A DNA stretch of 36,308 nucleotides from a virus (Duplodnaviria; Heunggongvirae; Uroviricota; Caudoviricetes), in the IMG/VR virus record IMGVR_UViG_2563366905_000008. The stretch is one strand, 5' to 3'. The notes under the pieces are model-generated. The model saw only the letters and a list, made by a program, of their open reading frames with translations, had not been told where the DNA came from and did no database searches. Below, piece after piece: positions 4,752-36,308 of the stretch. How positions within the stretch are numbered: the stretch's first letter is position 1; the number at the start of each line of letters is the position of its first letter. The position numbers were made by a program, and so were the translations under genes.

Positions 4752-4942
4752 TGCGCGTCCTCCCTGTCCGGGCGTGAGAACTCCATAACGGGCACATCTG
4801 CCGAAAAATGCTGGCTGCAGTACGGGCAGACCAGGGTGACGCGTACCGCAGGGATGTGGTATTTACCGGACATCACGGCGATGGCGCTGTGAAAACGCAG
4901 GGTTGTAATATCTCTTTCGCACTGAATACATTTAAATATCAT
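4748..4942 (-). CDS. Zinc-ribbon protein (64 aa), hypothetical
   Basis: CxxC ... CxxC arrangement (CIQC ... CPYC); AGGAG RBS upstream of ATG at 4942. Confidence 0.5.
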   Translation of the reverse strand: MIFKCIQCERDITTLRFHSAIAVMSGKYHIPAVRVTLVCPYCSQHFSADVPVMEFSRPDREDAQ

Positions 4943-5036
4943 GATGAATTCTCCTGTTTCCGGCGTGCAGAAGCCCGCGGCGCTGACGCCGGAATAAAAA
5001 AGAAAATGTTTTTATTAAATAATTAACGTGGTGTGT

Positions 5037-5567
5037 TTACTGCACATCCTGCTCAAAAGGAATTATTGAAAAATCCTCAATATCGCTTTTTATGGTAATA
5101 CCGGGAATATTTTTCACGGCCTCTTTTTCATTCAGGATGGCGTCTTTATTTATTTCCTCTTTTACACGAATAAAGCGCTCAAGCCCCAGACGTCTCAGTA
5201 GTTCAATAACATTATCCGCTCCGCGAATGCTGACTGACGGCGGACGGTTTCGCCACTGCACCTCGCCGGTGGTGAGGTTAGCAAACTTCACCTTCCCGTT
5301 GCCGGTCAGTTCATCACGGTGTGCCTCACACCATGTCTGAATACCGGACTGCAGTTCGGCCATGCGTTTTTTCAGGCTCTCGGTGAGCGGGGCATAACGT
5401 GCGGTGATATCGCCAATGGCGTCATTCATTTCTGTTTCAGCCCTGACCAGTTCACGTTGTGCGTCACCGAGCAGTCTGATGCCCTCAATGACCTCTTCGC
5501 GTGTCCCTGGTACCCAGAGTGCCGCTGCGGACTTGATACGTTTTGCCCCTTTTGTACTTTTTGCCAT
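5037..5567 (-). CDS. gam: Gam-like host-nuclease inhibitor / DNA end-binding protein
   Basis: 176 aa; long stretches match Mu Gam as I remember it (RIKSAAA, ETEMNDAI, WCEA.RDELT, RPPSVSIRG, ERFIR, DFSIIPFEQ). Confidence 0.85.
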   Translation of the reverse strand: MAKSTKGAKRIKSAAALWVPGTREEVIEGIRLLGDAQRELVRAETEMNDAIGDITARYAPLTESLKKRMAELQSGIQTWCEAHRDELTGNGKVKFANLTTGEVQWRNRPPSVSIRGADNVIELLRRLGLERFIRVKEEINKDAILNEKEAVKNIPGITIKSDIEDFSIIPFEQDVQ

Positions 5568-23796: not shown

Positions 23797-24047
23797 TGAA
23801 AGAATACCGCTATTCCGGCCCGGCCAGCGGCGTCACGCTGTCGGACGGAACCGAAATCCTGCTCTGGCCGGGGAAGACGGTTTCCCTGCCGGAGGAGCAT
23901 GACTACGTGAAGGTACTGGTGGCGCTGAAGCATCTGACGCCGGTACCTGAAGAGACTAAACCCGCCGTCACACCGGCTGTGCAGTCACCAAAGCGCAGAA
24001 GCAGCAGTGACAGCGAAGTGAAAACGGAGGACTCCCATGGCAGCTAA
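23793..24047 (+). CDS. Small hypothetical structural protein (84 aa)
   Basis: Coupled ORF directly upstream of the sheath gene. Confidence 0.5.
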   Translation: MMKEYRYSGPASGVTLSDGTEILLWPGKTVSLPEEHDYVKVLVALKHLTPVPEETKPAVTPAVQSPKRRSSSDSEVKTEDSHGS

Positions 24048-25464
24048 CTATCTGCATGGCGTCGAAACCATTGAGGTGGAAAACGGTGCCCGCCCGGTTA
24101 AAACGGTGAAATCTGCCGTTATTGGCCTGATTGGTACCGCACCAATGGGGGACGTCAATACGCTGGTGCAGTGCCTGTCTGAGAAAGATGCTGCTGCGTT
24201 TGGCAACCAGCTCACCGGCTTTACCATTCCGCAGGCGCTGGATGCGATTTATGACCATGGTGCAGGCACCGTTCTGGTCATTAACGTCCTCGACCCGGCG
24301 AAACATAAAACGGCGATCGAGGATGAGGTGGTTACCTTTGACAAATCGACAGGGCAGGCCAGACTGGCGCATCCGGTTGTCGCTAATGTGGTGGTGAAAA
24401 ACAGTGAAGGCAGCACCGCCCACACGGCGAACACGGACTACCGTGTTGATGCGCAGGCGGGTGTGCTCACGAACCTGGGCAAGGCTATTGAAGCCGGTGG
24501 CAGCGTGAAGGTGAGCTATGAGTACGCGGACCCGTCGAAGGTGACTGCGGCGGACATCATCGGCGGGGTGAACAGCGCCGGAAACCGTACCGGCATGAAG
24601 CTGCTTAACGACAGCTTTAACCTGTACGGCTATTTCGCCAAAATTCTGATTGCGCCAGTGTTCTGCACCCAGAAGAGTGTCGCAGTTGAGCTTATCGCCA
24701 TGGCAGAGAAGCTGGGCGCGGTAACCTACATTGATGCTCCTGTCGGTACCACCTTTGCACAGGCTCTGGCAGGTCGTGGCCCGGAAGGCACCATCAACTT
24801 CAATACCAGCTCCGACCGCGTCCGTCTGTGCTATCCGCACGTCAAGGTGTACGACGCGGTCACCAACAGCGAACGGCTGGAGCCGCTGAGCCAGCGTGCT
24901 GCAGGTCTGCGTGCCAGGGTCGACATGGACAAGGGTTACTGGTGGTCGTCCTCCAACCAGGAGATTCTGGGTATCACTGGTGTGGAGCGCCAACTGTCAG
25001 CAATGATTGACGACCCGCAGAGCGAGGTGAACCTGCTCAACGAACAGGGGATCACCACGGTATTCAGCAGTTACGGCAGCGGCCTTCGTCTGTGGGGTAA
25101 CCGGACGGCAGCATGGCCAACGGTCACCCATATGCGTAACTTTGAGAACGTTCGCCGCACCGGTGATGTGATCAACGAGTCCATTCGTTATTTCAGCCAG
25201 CAGTACATCGACATGCCGATTACTCAGGCGCTGATTGATGCACTGACGGAGTCGGTCAACGCCTACGGTCGCAAAATGACTGGTGATGGTGCGGTACTGG
25301 GCTTCCGTTGCTGGTTTGATCCGGCCCGCAATCCGGAGACGGAGCTGGCCGCCGGGCACCTGTTGCTTAGCTACAAATATACGCCACCACCGCCGCTGGA
25401 GCGACTGACGTATGAGACTGAGATCACCTCGGAATACCTGTTAACCCTGAAAGGGGGCAACTGA
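24037..25464 (+). CDS. Contractile tail sheath protein
   Basis: 475 aa; position before the tube gene; size typical of P2 FI / Mu L-like sheath. Confidence 0.85.
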   Translation: MAANYLHGVETIEVENGARPVKTVKSAVIGLIGTAPMGDVNTLVQCLSEKDAAAFGNQLTGFTIPQALDAIYDHGAGTVLVINVLDPAKHKTAIEDEVVTFDKSTGQARLAHPVVANVVVKNSEGSTAHTANTDYRVDAQAGVLTNLGKAIEAGGSVKVSYEYADPSKVTAADIIGGVNSAGNRTGMKLLNDSFNLYGYFAKILIAPVFCTQKSVAVELIAMAEKLGAVTYIDAPVGTTFAQALAGRGPEGTINFNTSSDRVRLCYPHVKVYDAVTNSERLEPLSQRAAGLRARVDMDKGYWWSSSNQEILGITGVERQLSAMIDDPQSEVNLLNEQGITTVFSSYGSGLRLWGNRTAAWPTVTHMRNFENVRRTGDVINESIRYFSQQYIDMPITQALIDALTESVNAYGRKMTGDGAVLGFRCWFDPARNPETELAAGHLLLSYKYTPPPPLERLTYETEITSEYLLTLKGGN

Positions 25465-25985
25465 TGTCAAAGATTGAGATAAACCGAATCACGAATGCCA
25501 ACATCTATCTGGATGGTACTAACCTGCTGGGACGGGCTGAGGAAGTTAAACTCCCCGATGTCTCCATGATTATGCAGGAGCACAAGGCACTGGGGATGGT
25601 GGGTAAGGTGGAACTCCCGGCTGGTTTTGACAAACTGGAAGGCGAAATCAAATGGAACAGCTTTTACCGCGATGCGATGCTGTCTGCCGCGAACCCGTAC
25701 AGGTCGCTGGCACTGCAGTGTCGTTCCAGCGTCCAGCGCTACAGCTCGCAGGGGCTGATCGACGAAATCCCGCTGGTCACCTTCCTGACGATTATGTTCA
25801 AGAAGAACCCGCTGGGGACGTTCAAACAGCACGAGAACGCCGAGTTCTCCAGTAGCTTCACCTGCACGTATATCAGACAGGTACTGGATGGTGAAGAGCT
25901 GCTGCAACTGGACTATCTGGCCAACATCTTCCGGGTCGGCGGTGTTGATCAACTGACTGACTACCGCATCAATATCGGGGGCTGA
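25464..25985 (+). CDS. Tail tube protein
   Basis: 173 aa, ATGA-coupled to the sheath gene; P2 FII / Mu M-like size and position. Confidence 0.8.
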   Translation: MSKIEINRITNANIYLDGTNLLGRAEEVKLPDVSMIMQEHKALGMVGKVELPAGFDKLEGEIKWNSFYRDAMLSAANPYRSLALQCRSSVQRYSSQGLIDEIPLVTFLTIMFKKNPLGTFKQHENAEFSSSFTCTYIRQVLDGEELLQLDYLANIFRVGGVDQLTDYRINIGG

Positions 25986-26367: not shown

Positions 26368-26703
26368 ATGTCACAGACCCAGTCCGATACTTTTACGCTG
26401 TCTTATCCCTTCACCACTGCTGCCGGTACCAGAATTGAGCAGGTTGAACTGAAACGCCTGACGGTAAAAGACCTGAAGCAGGTGCGCAAAATCAGCAAAA
26501 ACCCGGCAGACTGGGACGAACCGCTGATTGCCCGCAGTACTGGTCTTCTCCCGGAAGATCTCGACAATATGGACCTGGCTGATTACCTGCAGTTACAGAA
26601 ACGATTTCAGCTCATCACGGGGATGGGTGAGAGCGACAAAGGCGCTGACGCAGGCGCAGGGGCTGCTGGCGAGATGGTTCCGGTTTCAGCCGGGGGAGAT
26701 TGA
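26368..26703 (+). CDS. Tail assembly chaperone, short form (P2 E-like)
   Basis: 111 aa with AGGAG RBS; position between tube and tape measure genes. Confidence 0.7.
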   Translation: MSQTQSDTFTLSYPFTTAAGTRIEQVELKRLTVKDLKQVRKISKNPADWDEPLIARSTGLLPEDLDNMDLADYLQLQKRFQLITGMGESDKGADAGAGAAGEMVPVSAGGD

Positions 26704-26785
26704 TGCCCTCGATACTGACGATCTGGAGATGTGGCTGGAGCAGGCTGAAGAGCAAATCAAAAGCGAGTACGGCGACAAATCATAG
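26368..26785 (+). CDS. Putative frameshifted long form of tail assembly chaperone (E+E'-like), +1 frame extension
   Basis: A second ORF (track 26528..26785) in the +1 frame overlaps the 3' end of the chaperone gene. Only its C-terminal part (EIDALDTDDLEMWLEQAEEQIKSEYGDKS) looks protein-like. The -1 frame gives an Arg-rich, implausible peptide. Confidence 0.35.
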
Positions 26786-26860: not shown

Positions 26861-29812
26861 ATGTCGGGACAGTTTTCAGTCGGCGTTGTTATCGGCGGGA
26901 TGATTGGCAGCACATTCCGTTCTGCAATGAGCGGTACCCGCCGTGCGCTTGATTCCCTGAGCGATACCTCACGCCGCCTGCAGGAACGTCAGAACGCTTT
27001 AACCCGTGCAACAGAACGTTATGGTCAACTGGGTTCTTCCCGGATGCAGCATCTCAACAGCGAGCTGCTGCGGGTAAGCCGCACCATGGAGCAAATTGAG
27101 CGCCAGCAGCGCCGTCTGTCAGCGGCATCCGCTACCAGTGATGCGCTGAAAGCTAACCGCATGGCGCTGTATGGTCAGGGGATTGAAGCATATGGCATGG
27201 CACAGACTGTTTATCATACGGTTTCCCCTGCCGTTCAGCAGTCCATGTCTTTTCAGGACAAAATGATTGATATGTCGATCACCGCAAAATATGACAATAA
27301 AACGCGGGATGCACTTGCCGGACAGATAAAAGGCTGGGCGCTTAAATACAATCAGTATCAGGATGAGCTGCAGGAGGCGGTGGGTTCGCTCATCAGCGAC
27401 AATATTGATAACTTGTCAGATATCGGTTTTCTGATGCCGGATATTGCCCGCGCGGCAACGGCAACACGCACGTCATCTCAGGACTGGGCAAAAGTGGCCG
27501 CAGTCTGGCAAAACTCCCTGAAAGGTGCCGCCAGAGATTTTGGTGCCGTTCAGAATATTATGGCTTATGCCGGTGACCAGGGGTCATTTGAAATCCCGGA
27601 TCAGGTCAAATGGATGCAGTCCCTGGCCCCAATGATGGCGGGCGTTGCCAGTGGAAAAGAGGCTGTTGCTGAAATCGGAGCCAGTCTCCAGATAGCAAAA
27701 ATCGGTGCAGGTTCCACCGACGAAGCAGCCAATAATTTTAAAAACTTTCTTACCAAAATTTTTGCCCGCGATACTCAGAAACAGTTTGCTGATCTGGGTA
27801 TTGATTTGCAGGGATCTATTGCGAGTTATAAGGCTGCGGGGATCTCTCCGATTGAAGGGATGTTGAGTGTTATAGAACGTTACCTCAATGCCAAAAGCCC
27901 CGAAGCGCTGGCCGGCTTCAAATCTGCCATGAAAATAAAGAATGATACGGCAAGAGATGAGGCACTTCAGGCTCTGGCGAAAAACTTTGGTCTGGGTGAT
28001 ATGTTCGCGGATATGCAGGTCATGGCATTTATCCGCCCGATGCTGGCCAACATGGACAGATATCGCGAGATCCGCGCCGGTGCTCTCAGGGCTGCGGATA
28101 ACGATTTGCTTGCCAGTGCTTATGATCAGCGGCTGAAATCTCCCCTTGAAGCCACTAAAGCACTTATGGTCAGCAGTCGCGATCTGGCTATTACGCTGGG
28201 CGATCAACTCGCCCCCTCTTTTATTTCTCTGACTCAGGAGTTGATCCCACTCATTCAGGGGACAAAACACTGGGTAGCGACTCACCCGCAATTTGTCAGT
28301 GGGGCTTTTAAGCTCATCAGTGCGCTCCTTGCGATTAAGATAGCGACTGTTGGTCTCAAACTGGGGCTGAATCTCCTTATTTCCCCCTTTGTGAACGTCT
28401 GGAAAACTGCTGTTTTACTTCGGGCCAACTGGCTTCGTCTGTCGCTCGCACTGGGGCAAGGCGGTAAGCTCCGCTGGCTGGTGACCGGATTTAGCGCCGT
28501 CGCCAGAGGAGCCAGAACACTGAGTGGCGTGCTCTCCGGGGGGCTGGTTCGCGGAATTATGCTCGCCGGACGTGCTGTTCTCTGGATTGGACGTGCGCTG
28601 ATGATGAATCCCATCGGTCTCGTTATCACCGCTGTCGCGGCAGCAGCTTACCTTATCTACCGCAACTGGGGGGCAGTCAGTGGCTGGTTTAAACAGCGCT
28701 GGGCAGACATTCAGGAAGCCTTTAACGGCGGCATTGTGGGAACTGGTAAGTTGCTGATTAACTGGTCGCCGGCAGGCCTGCTCTATAAAGCCTTTGCGGC
28801 TGCGCTGAAATATTTCGGCGTTGCTCTGCCGGCAAAGTTCACCGACTTCGGTGGCCATCTTATCGACGGTCTGATTAACGGTATCAAAAACAAATGGGGG
28901 TCGCTCAAATCCAGTGTAACCGGAATGGGTGACAGCATCAGTAGCTGGTTTAAACAGTGCTGGGCTGACATTCAGGAAGCCTTTAACGGCGGTATCGCGG
29001 GAACTGGTAAGCTGCTGATTAACTGGTCGCCGGCAGGTCTGCTCTGTAAAGCCTTTGCAGCTGCGCTGAAATATCTTGGTGTTGATCTGCCGGCAAAGTT
29101 CACCGACTTCGGTGGCCATCTTGTCGACGGTCTGATTAACGGTATCAAAAACAAATGGGAGTCGCTCAAATCCAGTGTAACCGGAATGGGTGACAGCATC
29201 AGTGGCTGGTTCAGCGAAAAGCTGGGCATTCATTCGCCGAGCCGCGTGTTTATGGGCTTTGGTGACAATATCGCGCAGGGGGCCGCCATTGGCCTGCAGC
29301 GGACCACTCCGCTTGCAGCTCTGGCCGGGCAGCGAATGGCCAGTGAACTGCTCCCCAGAATGCCCGTGAGCATTCAGGGGCCAGAAATACGGGATAACAC
29401 TTCAGGTGTTCGCTTCAGTATGCCGTTGCCCGATATCAACGGGTTTATGTCGTCTGCTAAAAATGCGATCGGAGCCGTAATCAATAGTTTGTCTTCCATG
29501 CCCGTTATTCCGCTCTCCACCCGGGCATCGGTTTTACCAGGGCAACGTCTGGCAAATGAGATGACACCGGATGTTCCCCGTATCCCCTCGCCTGAAATCC
29601 TGGCTGCCGGATATTCAGGCCGTGGTGCAGCTGCAACCGGCGGTGGAACGTCTGGTGGTATCCAGGTCAGCTTTAATCCTCAGTTTTTCCTCAATGGCAG
29701 GGAAACCACAGCGCCTGCAGGACTGACTGGTGCCCTGAATATGAGTCTGCATGAGCTGGAAAAAATGCTGGAGCGTCTGCTGGCTCAGAAACAACGTAAG
29801 GAGTACCGCTGA
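26861..29812 (+). CDS. Tail tape measure protein
   Basis: 983 aa, largely helical, central hydrophobic segments and Gly-rich C-terminal part; follows the chaperone pair. Confidence 0.85.
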   Translation: MSGQFSVGVVIGGMIGSTFRSAMSGTRRALDSLSDTSRRLQERQNALTRATERYGQLGSSRMQHLNSELLRVSRTMEQIERQQRRLSAASATSDALKANRMALYGQGIEAYGMAQTVYHTVSPAVQQSMSFQDKMIDMSITAKYDNKTRDALAGQIKGWALKYNQYQDELQEAVGSLISDNIDNLSDIGFLMPDIARAATATRTSSQDWAKVAAVWQNSLKGAARDFGAVQNIMAYAGDQGSFEIPDQVKWMQSLAPMMAGVASGKEAVAEIGASLQIAKIGAGSTDEAANNFKNFLTKIFARDTQKQFADLGIDLQGSIASYKAAGISPIEGMLSVIERYLNAKSPEALAGFKSAMKIKNDTARDEALQALAKNFGLGDMFADMQVMAFIRPMLANMDRYREIRAGALRAADNDLLASAYDQRLKSPLEATKALMVSSRDLAITLGDQLAPSFISLTQELIPLIQGTKHWVATHPQFVSGAFKLISALLAIKIATVGLKLGLNLLISPFVNVWKTAVLLRANWLRLSLALGQGGKLRWLVTGFSAVARGARTLSGVLSGGLVRGIMLAGRAVLWIGRALMMNPIGLVITAVAAAAYLIYRNWGAVSGWFKQRWADIQEAFNGGIVGTGKLLINWSPAGLLYKAFAAALKYFGVALPAKFTDFGGHLIDGLINGIKNKWGSLKSSVTGMGDSISSWFKQCWADIQEAFNGGIAGTGKLLINWSPAGLLCKAFAAALKYLGVDLPAKFTDFGGHLVDGLINGIKNKWESLKSSVTGMGDSISGWFSEKLGIHSPSRVFMGFGDNIAQGAAIGLQRTTPLAALAGQRMASELLPRMPVSIQGPEIRDNTSGVRFSMPLPDINGFMSSAKNAIGAVINSLSSMPVIPLSTRASVLPGQRLANEMTPDVPRIPSPEILAAGYSGRGAAATGGGTSGGIQVSFNPQFFLNGRETTAPAGLTGALNMSLHELEKMLERLLAQKQRKEYR
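28685..29206 (+). repeat. In-frame tandem duplication (2 x 261 bp) inside the tape measure gene
   Basis: Copy 1 28685-28945 and copy 2 28946-29206 encode 87-aa units differing at 8 residues (WFKQRWADIQEAFNGG... vs WFKQCWADIQEAFNGG...). Confidence 0.8.
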
Positions 29813-30696
29813 TGTTTGCCGTACTGGGTGATATTGAGTTTGAGCTGATTACCTACTGGGACGGCTTCGAGGCCACGTTCGGCGTCGATTATGCGGAGCA
29901 TGCCCGCATCGGGGGTAAGCCTGGCCTGCAGTTCGTCGGCGACAGGCTGGACGAAATCCAGATAACTCTGGTTTTCCATCAGCATTATTGTGTACCCGAC
30001 GTGGAGCTGGCGAGACTGCGAACAGCCATGAAAGCCCATCAGGCACTGGCGCTGGTCTTCGGCAACGGTGACTATCGCGGCTGGTTCGTGATTACCGATG
30101 TGACTGCAACCAGCGAGCAGACTGACAGTACCGGCAACGTGCTGGCTGTCAGTGCCACCGTGTCTCTCCGGGAATACACCGGTGACCCGAAAAATCCTCT
30201 GCAACCACCGGCAATACGCACGAAGCTCCCGGGTGTCGGGGCGGTCTCCGGTGCCATTCCTTCACCTTCAGGGGTGGCGCAGTTCATCCGCAACGGCGTC
30301 AACTATGCGAAACAGGCGCAGTCTGTACTCCAGACCACTATCAGCGCCGTTCGGGTGACACAGAAAATGAAGGATAACCCCGTTGTCGCACTGACCCGTG
30401 TGCCGGGGCTGATGAGCGGACTGGGTAATATCTCCGGGGCTCTGGGGAAAAGTGTTCCGGCGTTTAACGCACTCTCTGAATCCATGCCCGATGCCATCAG
30501 TCTGGCCAGAACAGCCAGCGAAGCAGCCACGTATGTACAGCAGGCACAGTCTGCGCTGAGTGGTGTGGACAAAAGAAATATTGCAGGTGCTCTGGATACC
30601 GTTTCCGGGCAGCTTAACGCCGCCGGCACAGCATTCAACCGCATGTCTCCGGGATTAAGTGCAATGGCCGCCAGAATACTGACGAGGAGTGTGTGA
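29812..30696 (+). CDS. Tail protein with P2 gpU-like N-terminal domain and Ala/Ser-rich C-terminal extension
   Basis: ATGA-coupled to the tape measure gene; N-terminal ~130 aa resemble gpU-type tail proteins; position after the tape measure gene. Confidence 0.6.
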   Translation: MFAVLGDIEFELITYWDGFEATFGVDYAEHARIGGKPGLQFVGDRLDEIQITLVFHQHYCVPDVELARLRTAMKAHQALALVFGNGDYRGWFVITDVTATSEQTDSTGNVLAVSATVSLREYTGDPKNPLQPPAIRTKLPGVGAVSGAIPSPSGVAQFIRNGVNYAKQAQSVLQTTISAVRVTQKMKDNPVVALTRVPGLMSGLGNISGALGKSVPAFNALSESMPDAISLARTASEAATYVQQAQSALSGVDKRNIAGALDTVSGQLNAAGTAFNRMSPGLSAMAARILTRSV

Positions 30697-34139: not shown

Positions 34140-34710
34140 GCCATTACAACTCCCGCCACCGCTTGAGGGTGATATCAGTCTCAGGACGCTGGGAAGACTG
34201 GCAGGGCGGCTGGATAACATCGACCTGAGCGTACTGATGGTCTTTCTCGTCGATATCGTCGACAGTTCTGCGCTGCCATGGCTGGGCGAGCAGTTCTCAC
34301 TGTCTGGCGATGGCTGGGAGCTGGCGGAATCGGACGATGTTCGCCGCATGCTTATAAAAGCAGCCATCGAACTACACCGGTATAAAGGGACGCCGTGGTC
34401 AATCCGGGAAGTTATCCGCCGTTTTGGCTTTGGTGAAGTGGATCTGATTGAAGGCACAGGTCGTCTCAGTTACGACGGCAATCGCAGCTATAACGGACTG
34501 TTTGTTCATGGAGATGCAGCCGCCTGGGCGGTTTATCGCGTTATTCTGAAACAGCCCATTACTAACGATCAGGCCGCGATGCTGCGTCAGACGCTCGCTG
34601 CATTTGCACCGGCCCGCTGCCATCTGGCCAGCCTGGAGTATCAGTCTGTGGCTATTCGCTATAACAATACCGCCATCCATGATGGCAGTTATAACCACGG
34701 GAGCAGTTGA
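34132..34710 (+). CDS. Tail protein I-like
   Basis: ATG at 34132 (MTEPLQLPP...) overlapping the J-like stop; conserved HRYKGTPWSIREV-type segment. Confidence 0.65.
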   Translation: MTEPLQLPPPLEGDISLRTLGRLAGRLDNIDLSVLMVFLVDIVDSSALPWLGEQFSLSGDGWELAESDDVRRMLIKAAIELHRYKGTPWSIREVIRRFGFGEVDLIEGTGRLSYDGNRSYNGLFVHGDAAAWAVYRVILKQPITNDQAAMLRQTLAAFAPARCHLASLEYQSVAIRYNNTAIHDGSYNHGSS

Positions 34711-36308
34711 TTATGGGAAACCTGAATGAAACAGAAAAGTGGGAAGAAAATATCTATCAACTGGAGACATCAGATCCGGTTCTGGGTGGTGCTGACGGGA
34801 TATCAAATCGAGCCCCCCGGCAACTGGCAAACAGGACGAAATGGCTGAAGAAGAAAACGGAGGAAGCCGCACAGTCACTGGCTGAACACGTGCGTTCCCG
34901 TAACCACCCGGACGCGACACTGACAGCTAAGGGGTTCACCCAACTGAGCAGTGCCACCAACAGCACCTCTGAAACGCTGGCCGCCACACCAAAAGCCGTC
35001 AAGGCTGCATACGACCTTGCAGCCGGCAAGGCGCCTGCCAGCCACACTCACCCGTGGAACCAGATAACGGGAGTGCCTGCTGCTTCGCTGACGGCAAAAG
35101 GCACCGTACAACTGAGCAGCGCCACGGACAGTCAATCAGAAACTGAGGCTGCCACGCCGAAGGCTGTGAAAATCGCGTATGATCTGGCCCGGGGAAAATA
35201 CACAGCCCAGGATGCAACAACGACCCGTAAAGGGATCGTACAACTGAGCAGTGCCACTAACAGCACGTCTGAAACGCTGGCCGCCACACCAAAGGCCGTC
35301 AAGGCTGCATATGACCTGGCTGCCGGCAAGGCCCCCGTCAGCCACACTCACCCGTGGAGTCAGATAACGGGAGTGCCTGCTGCCTCGCTGACGGCAAAAG
35401 GCACCGTACAACTGAGCAGCGCCACGGACAGTCAATCAGAAACTGAGGCTGCCACGCCGAAGGCGGTCAAGGCTGCATACGACCTTGCAGCCGGCAAGGC
35501 GCCCGTCAGCCACACTCACCCGTGGAGTCAGATAACGGGAGTGCCTGCTGCCTCGCTGACGGCAAAAGGCACCGTACAATTGAGCAGTGCCATCAACAGC
35601 ACGTCTGAAATACTGGCCGCCACACCGAAAGCGGTCAAGGCTGCATACGATCTGGCAAACGGAAAACAACCGGCAGATGCCACGCTCACTGCTCTGGCAG
35701 GGCTTGCCACTGCAGCAGATCGGTTGCCTTATTTTACCGGAGCAGACCGCGCAGCGCTGGCAACCCTTACAGCTATTGGTCGCGCTATTATCGCTAAGGG
35801 CAGTATAAAAGATGTCCTCAATTACCTTGGTTTGGGGGAAGGCTCTGCACTGCCTGTTGGTGTGCCTGTTCCATGGCCCACCGCCACGCCGCCAGCAGGC
35901 TGGTTGAAGTGCGACGGACGCTCCTTTACAAAAGAACAATATCCTGTTCTGGCCCGAGTCTACCCGACCCTCCGCCTGCCTGATTTGCGCGGTGAGTTTA
36001 TCCGTGGATGGGACGACGGACGAAAGGTTGACACCGGGCGTGCCCTGCTAAGCAGCCAGAGCGGAATGATTGAAAAACACCGTCATATTGTTGTTGCCAA
36101 TGATGGTTACGACACAAAAGATGAATGGGAACTGGCTGCGATTTTCAAAAAGACATACACACAAGGACGGGGACTTGATGCCACAAATACAGGAGGGAGT
36201 CTGATCCCATCACCGACACTTCATTCACGAGGGAGTATCGGTAATACTGGCGGGAGTGAAACCCGTCCACGAAATATTGCCTTTAACTACATTGTCAGGG
36301 CGACCTAA
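34707..36308 (+). CDS. Tail fiber protein with tandem fiber repeats and C-terminal tail-collar-like domain
   Basis: 533 aa ending with TAA at the window edge; five repeats of [LT]TAKG.VQLSSAT...ATPKAVK.AYDLA; C-terminal YPVLARVYPTLRLPDLRGEFIRGWDDG resembles the phage tail collar motif. Confidence 0.8.
   Translation: MIMGNLNETEKWEENIYQLETSDPVLGGADGISNRAPRQLANRTKWLKKKTEEAAQSLAEHVRSRNHPDATLTAKGFTQLSSATNSTSETLAATPKAVKAAYDLAAGKAPASHTHPWNQITGVPAASLTAKGTVQLSSATDSQSETEAATPKAVKIAYDLARGKYTAQDATTTRKGIVQLSSATNSTSETLAATPKAVKAAYDLAAGKAPVSHTHPWSQITGVPAASLTAKGTVQLSSATDSQSETEAATPKAVKAAYDLAAGKAPVSHTHPWSQITGVPAASLTAKGTVQLSSAINSTSEILAATPKAVKAAYDLANGKQPADATLTALAGLATAADRLPYFTGADRAALATLTAIGRAIIAKGSIKDVLNYLGLGEGSALPVGVPVPWPTATPPAGWLKCDGRSFTKEQYPVLARVYPTLRLPDLRGEFIRGWDDGRKVDTGRALLSSQSGMIEKHRHIVVANDGYDTKDEWELAAIFKKTYTQGRGLDATNTGGSLIPSPTLHSRGSIGNTGGSETRPRNIAFNYIVRAT
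34920..35663 (+). repeat. Tandem repeat array inside the tail fiber gene (about five ~37-aa units; higher-order ~300-bp period)
   Basis: Near-identical DNA segments beginning caactgagcagtgcca at 34941 and 35241, with a further copy near 35577. Confidence 0.8.

Follow-up and report, generated by a model that had tools for sequence, protein, structure and literature searches.

The viral stretch IMGVR_UViG_2563366905_000008 (Caudoviricetes; 36,308 nucleotides, the whole of which we call the window) can be recognised from its gene content as a Mu-like (BcepMu-like) transposable prophage of Escherichia coli with a P2-type contractile tail. Its tail tape measure gene carries a 261-base-pair (bp) unit in two tandem, in-frame copies. 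We consider it probable that this minisatellite was duplicated once, in the E. coli clade of these prophages, that its copy number has varied from one to three by unequal exchange, and that each added unit would lengthen the tail through the ruler function of the tape measure protein.

Two in-frame units in the tape measure gene

The tape measure gene (26861-29812, + strand) encodes 983 amino acids (aa), and its identity is supported by an open reading frame (ORF) of full length, a Pfam match, RefSeq annotation and homology. The Pfam family PF10145 (PhageMin_Tail) matches aa 159-340 with 72.6 bits against a cut-off of 33.2 (E 5.4e-20), identical and near-identical genes bear the RefSeq label 'phage tail tape measure protein', and the protein is homologous to gp18 of Burkholderia phage phiE255 and to BcepMu gp44. 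Tandem Repeats Finder reports the repeat as a single array at 28677-29211 (period 261, 2.0 copies, 93% matches, 0 indels, score 958). We delimit unit 1 ('A') at 28685-28945 (+, codons 609-695) and unit 2 ('B') at 28946-29206 (+, codons 696-782), both in frame with the ORF, codon 609 being the first of unit 1. The two units differ at 16 of 261 bases (14 transitions and 2 transversions, leaving 245 identical), with the result that 8 of the 87 residues are changed: R5C, V18A, Y34C, F44L, A47D, I60V, G72E and S87G. An earlier note on this DNA had described an in-frame 261-bp tandem duplication in the tape measure gene, with 87-codon units that differ at 8 residues, and all of these details agree with what we found.

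Comparison of the gene with itself gave 244-245 identical bases out of 261 at an offset of 261, and at most 100 out of 261 at every other in-frame offset within the gene. Compared base by base, the identity at offset 261 is near-continuous from 28677 to ∼28950 and drops to background level on either side, so that the periodicity reaches 8 bases upstream and 5 bases downstream of 28685-29206. Minus-strand ORFs that cross the repeat (e.g. 28415-29233) were taken as mechanical ORFs opposite a coding gene.

Assemblies can indeed be upset by repeats of this size, and reads joined wrongly in the source assembly, or a duplication made by the assembler, would produce the same picture. The GenBank record of Escherichia phage PhiKM (PQ738613.1, locus about 4915-5239) is a case in point: it contains a gap of 100 Ns, and its tape measure gene is split into two coding sequences annotated as 'disrupted by sequencing gap'; because the gap falls exactly at the repeat, the number of units in PhiKM is hidden. 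For the window, however, independent genomes answer the question. Of 5426 complete E. coli genomes, 634 are matched by a 1301-bp query that crosses the repeat, and 469 of the 634 have a single place that covers 80% or more of the query. The complete genome CP116948 is 100% identical, two units included, and two-unit sequence at 95-99% identity is present in hundreds of further complete genomes from many laboratories. Moreover, the 16 differences between the units follow a coding-like substitution pattern. The occurrence of the two-unit allele in hundreds of complete genomes rules out an artefact for practical purposes, and we assign that explanation a negligible probability.

Copy number in E. 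coli prophages

Tape measure alleles with one, two and three units were found in E. coli prophages. The one-unit gene has 2691 nucleotides (nt) and encodes 896 aa (fetched locus L002), the two-unit gene has 2952 nt and encodes 983 aa (the window and the allele of the sequence type 131 (ST131) type, L008), and the three-unit gene has 3213 nt and encodes 1070 aa (fetched loci L004 and L007). Strains with one unit include DLI.5a (CP103972) and F1140 (OY754377), CUVET21-PYO5 (CP116948) has two, and FDAARGOS_1299 (CP069978) has three. In a systematic spread sample of 60 of the 634 matching genomes, with copy number judged from record spans, about 43 had two units, 11 showed the three-unit signature and 5 had one unit. 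By this sample, the majority of the 634 have two units. The same three lengths recur among full-length protein clusters in a search of 5.8 billion proteins: 24 clusters with one unit (896 aa), 42 with two (983 aa) and 17 with three (1070 aa). No four-unit allele was present among the best 120 protein clusters, even though more units score higher and such an allele would have ranked first.

A one-unit query retrieved one-unit alleles from 13 complete genomes at an identity of 98% or more and from 3 others at 92%. The search of homologous genes for single-copy alleles, which the earlier note had proposed as a check, was therefore successful: such alleles exist, and 16 complete genomes are among their carriers. 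Alleles with one, two and three units occur in flanks that are 95-99% identical, and they are interspersed within the same flanking haplogroups. Within a clone, the locus was found to be uniform: the ST131-type allele was sampled in about 30 genomes and was in each the same two-unit allele, with no difference in bit score or identity, and without the hypervariability of a contingency locus.

A further three-unit locus, L003 (NZ_CP142930.1, 703-3914, strain B20123), has 3212 nt where an intact gene has 3213, and the annotation treats it as a pseudogene. The one-base deficit may be either a true frameshift or a sequencing error.

Hybrid units and copy-number change

To polarise the 16 sites that distinguish the two units, we used four outgroups with a single unit each (L005, L006, Klebsiella phage KP12 and Phi06_2974 B). 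Of the derived states, nine lie in unit 1 (unit positions 20, 47, 50, 66, 92, 129, 139, 214 and 258) and six in unit 2 (positions 12, 52, 100, 113, 131 and 177); for the derived state at position 100 (Y34C, 100G), the window-type allele and the one-unit locus L053 were the only carriers seen. With these assignments, the one-unit alleles can be read as mosaics. L002 is of unit 1 type at positions 12-100 and of unit 2 type at positions 113-258, and because derived states of both units are present in it, L002 is the product of a collapse and not an ancestor. The flanks of L002 point the same way: their synonymous divergence (dS) from the window is 0.057, compared with 0.12-0.13 for the two-unit L008 and the three-unit L004, so that L002 is nested inside the duplicated clade.

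Other one-unit alleles in complete genomes switch from one type to the other between positions 12 and 20 (L054), 92 and 100 (L053), and 214 and 258 (L052), and a switch between positions 92 and 113 also occurs in complete genomes. L002, L052, L053 and L054 are all hybrids that start (5') as unit 1 and finish (3') as unit 2, their switch points being different, and we count at least three distinct contraction events. Protein signatures show additional switch classes.

The three-unit alleles supply the other half of the picture. The middle unit of L003 is of unit 2 type at positions 12-52 and of unit 1 type at positions 66-258, the reciprocal hybrid, and this is exactly the product that unequal exchange between two misaligned two-unit arrays would leave. 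In L004, two units of type 1 that differ by a single base are followed by unit 2; this allele would have arisen by a different event from L003, or would have been converted later. The longest blocks of perfect identity between the units are 43, 37, 36, 26 and 25 bp. We propose that the later changes in copy number took place by homologous unequal exchange or by replication slippage, in the prophage or during phage replication, with RecA, a phage recombinase or slippage as candidate pathways. The description of the repeat as a recombination-prone site in the earlier note is thus borne out by one-, two- and three-unit alleles in close relatives with reciprocal hybrid units, although on evolutionary time scales.

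The gene as a whole is mosaic. Between the window and both L008 and L004, dS is ∼0.12 upstream of the repeat and 0.007 downstream of it, and a boundary of recombination between lineages therefore lies at or near the repeat.

Origin of the duplication

Relatives outside E. coli carry the unit in single copy. A 182-aa one-unit construct aligns collinearly and in one piece to Klebsiella phage KP12 and to Phi06_2974 B, and shorter single-piece matches to phiE255, BcepMu and Ralstonia phages cover most of it. When one genome per species was scanned in 37 non-E. coli species with relatives of this gene (Trabulsiella, Pantoea, Erwinia, Dickeya, Pectobacterium, Jeongeupia and Burkholderia among them), each had at most one unit, and 30 showed one clear full-length unit. 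Because relatives outside E. coli have one unit, we take one unit as the ancestral state and the duplication as a single event specific to the E. coli prophage clade, as far as the sampled genomes allow this to be read.

A lone two-unit locus outside E. coli, L024 (NZ_PJIO01000028.1, labelled 'Arthrobacter sp. GMC3'), lies on an 8-kilobase low-coverage contig, and its units differ from those of the window at 1 and 4 bases. L026 (NZ_PJIL01000085.1, 'Arthrobacter sp. Y81') is likewise a short low-coverage contig with an E. coli-type tape measure gene. Both are probably E. coli contamination of actinobacterial assemblies, a conclusion drawn for L024 from the close match of its units to the E. coli type on a contig of low coverage.

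The borders of the array suggest how the unit was first doubled. Read from the sequence, a 13-bp direct repeat, TCAGTGGCTGGTT, which encodes S-G-W-F, stands at the upstream border (28677-28689, +), and an identical copy of TCAGTGGCTGGTT stands at the downstream border (29199-29211, +). The junction of units 1 and 2 (28938-28950, +) reads TCAGTAGCTGGTT, with one mismatch to the border repeat. Single-unit outgroups retain 10-11 of the 13 bases at both borders, and the AGC codon of the junction is the codon found at the upstream border in outgroups L005 and L006. Because of these two features, we propose that the first duplication probably arose between the 13-bp direct repeats that flanked the ancestral unit, in one event of slipped mispairing or illegitimate recombination.

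Tape measure proteins often contain tandem repeats, and both units might instead belong to an ancient array intrinsic to this protein family, comparable to the arrays of 11- or 18-residue repeats in siphoviruses. Three observations contradict this. A BLASTP search for further copies of the unit elsewhere in the masked protein gave no significant match (best E 0.55, over 13 residues); all the relatives outside E. coli carry at most one unit; and the aromatic residues of the unit, at positions 1, 2, 6, 13, 27, 34, 37, 43, 44, 52, 55 and 71, are not spaced at 11 or 18 residues. An ancient array is therefore a highly improbable source of the two units, and we retain a single duplication within the E. 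coli clade.

Age of the duplication and selection on the units

The earlier note had regarded the duplication as recent, and at first sight the units, with 245 of 261 bases identical, and the existence of single-copy alleles fit a one-off event private to this genome, with the single-copy alleles as its unduplicated ancestor. Divergence between the units tells otherwise. Comparison of unit 1 with unit 2 gives a dS of 0.147 for the window and 0.168 for the ST131-type allele, as against 0.122 for the flanking upstream part of the gene between the window and the ST131-type lineage, the most distant of the two-unit lineages. Orthologous units can be recognised across the two-unit lineages: between the window and the ST131-type allele, dS is 0.089 for unit 1 against unit 1 and 0.070 for unit 2 against unit 2. 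Since the divergence between units equals or exceeds the divergence between lineages, the duplication is older than the separation of the known two-unit lineages. If the units have undergone gene conversion, the duplication would look younger than its real age.

The other evidence is equally hard to reconcile with a recent private event. The same pair of units is found in lineages whose flanks are separated by a dS of 0.12, two units are present in hundreds of complete genomes, the roughly 30 ST131-type genomes are uniform, and the near-identical one-unit alleles combine derived states of both units, as expected of secondary collapses. We therefore consider a recent duplication very unlikely, and the claim of a recent event is not sustained: by all of these comparisons, the duplication is a polymorphism of long standing that has been maintained, and it did not arise freshly in this genome.

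The ratio of non-synonymous to synonymous divergence (omega) is 0.28 between the units and 0.20 for the flank. Because of the value of 0.28 between the units, both copies are taken to be under purifying selection, and so strongly enough to be stated for each of them.

Predicted effect on tail length

The 87-residue unit lies in a well-conserved part of the protein. In the protein alignment it is a core segment between a hydrophobic central region and a conserved motif. The hydrophobic central segment (aa 477-600; 28289-28660, +) stands just before the repeat, is kept in relatives, and has Kyte-Doolittle peaks at aa 477-508 and aa 572-600. The motif LGIHSPSRVFMGFGDNIAQGAAIG (aa 788-811; 29222-29293, +) stands just after the repeat, and 22 of its 24 residues are invariant among the aligned relatives, including phiE255, which is 36% identical overall. 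Within the unit itself, W, NWSP and FTDFG.HL.DGL.NGI are invariant down to relatives of 36% identity.

Phage TP901-1 provides a quantitative reference for tape measure length: its tail measures ∼0.15 nm per tape measure residue, a 29% duplication gave a 30% longer tail, and the deletion of a hydrophobic region gave a shorter one (Mahony 2016, PMC5099701). The ruler rule is traced to Katsura and Hendrix in Belcaid 2011 (PMC3271669), and it has been applied in practice (PMC9928086). At ∼0.15 nm per residue, 87 residues give a predicted step of ∼13 nm, and each unit would thus add ∼9% of tail length. In contractile tails the rise per ring is roughly 4 nm, and a step of ∼13 nm would equal about three rings of tube and sheath. 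The 896-, 983- and 1070-aa alleles would then specify three discrete lengths, roughly 134, 147 and 160 nm. For comparison, the Mu-like Burkholderia myovirus KS10 has an 811-aa tape measure protein and a tail of ∼140 nm.

Several points weigh against our interpretation, and they concern both the history of the repeat and its effect. Some one-unit alleles come from draft assemblies and could be assembler collapses; the L004-type three-unit allele lacks the diagnostic hybrid; and some switches fall in intervals with 7-20 bp of perfect identity, less than RecA-dependent recombination in E. coli usually requires. The step in tail length, for its part, is derived from the ruler rule. Few parts of the protein are as conserved as the duplicated segment, which also borders on hydrophobic segments, so that the unit might not be a simple extended-helix spacer. 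Structural information is sparse: no PDB match to the protein was found at E≤0.01, and a single-sequence AlphaFold model of aa 540-830 is all-helical but has a predicted local distance difference test (pLDDT) score of 42, which makes it a weak hint of helicity only.

These structural considerations bear on an alternative in which the copy number is real but tail length is unchanged: the unit would be a folded or membrane-active module that serves as a conduit for DNA after ejection, and extra copies would be neutral or would affect injection. The strong conservation of the unit down to relatives of 36% identity, unusual in a pure spacer, and its position directly after the hydrophobic region are in favor of such a module. 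On the other hand, every tape measure protein tested experimentally has changed tail length in proportion to internal in-frame deletions or duplications, a hydrophobic region of TP901-1 included, and the low-confidence model would have the segment helical throughout. We therefore regard this alternative as unlikely, though it deserves to be kept in mind, and favor an effect of the repeat on tail length.

A stronger functional reading would be that the one-, two- and three-unit series is itself a maintained tail-length polymorphism of one widespread E. coli prophage lineage, the repeat acting as a length adjuster under selection by host surface layers (the depth of capsule or O-antigen). Repeated unequal exchange would then supply virions of three different tail lengths. 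We hold this to be rather improbable. If true, it would provide a natural isogenic series for the effect of tail length on infection by a contractile-tailed phage.

Gene neighbourhood and other features of the prophage

In its left part the window has genes for a DDE transposase of the rve family, a MuB-like AAA+ protein (AAA_22) and a Mu-type portal protein (Portal_Mu). The order of the tail genes is sheath, tube FII, gpE-type chaperone, tape measure, GpU, X, GPD and baseplate V, W and J. The sheath gene (24037-25464, +; Pfam Phage_sheath_1 and Phage_sheath_1C) marks the tail as contractile and is followed by the tube gene (25464-25985, +; Phage_tube FII) and by the gpE-type tail assembly chaperone gene (26368-26703, +; PF10109, Phage_TAC_7, E 2e-22). 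A gpU-like tail protein gene (29812-30696, +; Phage_P2_GpU, E 7e-39) lies directly downstream of the tape measure gene. A second-frame ORF at 26528-26785 overlaps the chaperone gene, and RefSeq names the equivalent overlapping pair 'phage tail assembly protein' and 'GpE family phage tail protein'. To judge from its layout, this pair follows the programmed-frameshift scheme that commonly precedes tape measure genes.

Among isolated phages the closest is PhiKM, a member of Bcepmuvirus with 96% identity. One genome whose tape measure segment is identical carries the prophage inside folM, as expected of a transposable phage. The chromosome of Jeongeupia wiesaeckerbachi (NZ_CP136946.1) has three related prophage tape measure regions (L029, L030 and L031) whose match statistics are identical, the pattern that a Mu-like phage would be expected to leave by transposing repeatedly.

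A second difference in length was noticed in the same tape measure gene. A segment of 72 residues (29342-29557; aa 828-899) is present in the window-type protein and missing from the 822-aa relatives (L005, L006 and KP12), and its borders are alike (AGQRMASELLPRMP... versus PGQRLANEMTPDVP...). The resemblance of the borders and the absence of the segment from the 822-aa relatives suggest an older length change, by now diverged.

The window contains a second tandem repeat, at 35229-35657 (period 168 bp, 2.6 copies, 85% matches), within the tail fibre gene (34707-36308, +), whose product has five Pfam Phage_fiber_2 repeats and a Collar domain. This is best classed as an ordinary tail-fibre repeat.

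Discussion

The protein studied here belongs to the same class, and occupies the same gene position, as the known tape measure rulers (lambda gpH, T4 gp29 and the tape measure protein of TP901-1), in which internal duplications and deletions scale the tail. Recognition of lambda gpH as the ruler of tail length reportedly goes back to Katsura and Hendrix in 1984. The length variants of lambda, T4 and TP901-1 were engineered or selected in the laboratory, whereas the series of one, two and three units in these prophages is natural and is known here from genes alone.

The closest relatives, the Bcepmuvirus members BcepMu (gp44) and phiE255 (gp18) together with KP12 and PhiKM, are homologous along the whole protein and have the same flanking genes. 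Unlike the window, BcepMu, phiE255 and KP12 have a single unit; the count in PhiKM is masked by its gap. Variable tandem units that are gained by duplication and lost again were likewise described in tape measure genes by Belcaid, Bergeron and Poisson 2011 (PMC3271669). The units in that study and in Siponen et al. 2009, however, have 11 (or 18) residues with W/F markers and form long arrays, mostly in siphoviruses, whereas the prophage unit has 87 residues, irregularly spaced aromatic residues and one to three copies, in a contractile-tailed transposable phage, and so falls outside that type of array. A 2026 survey states that contractile-tailed phages depend less on tandem repeats.

The repeat also has much in common with minisatellites, or variable-number tandem repeats (VNTRs), such as those of bacterial surface-protein genes: an in-frame unit, polymorphism in copy number and reciprocal hybrid units. 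It is unlike hypervariable VNTRs in that the two-unit ST131-type allele is the same throughout the sampled genomes and copy number ranges only from one to three. A literature search for this specific repeat and for PhiKM found no relevant paper.

That tape measure genes undergo internal duplication, and that this alters tail length, is already textbook knowledge, and the duplication and loss of units is an established theme. What sets the present case apart is the larger unit, its origin in a single conserved segment, the contractile-tailed transposable host, and a recombination history that can still be read. On the practical side, the repeat breaks up assemblies made from short reads, of which the PhiKM record is an example, and may lead to the gene being mis-annotated as disrupted. 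For the biology of these phages, the allelic series of 896, 983 and 1070 aa in near-identical prophages, one of them common in ST131, offers a means of testing the ruler rule and the effect of tail length on fitness.

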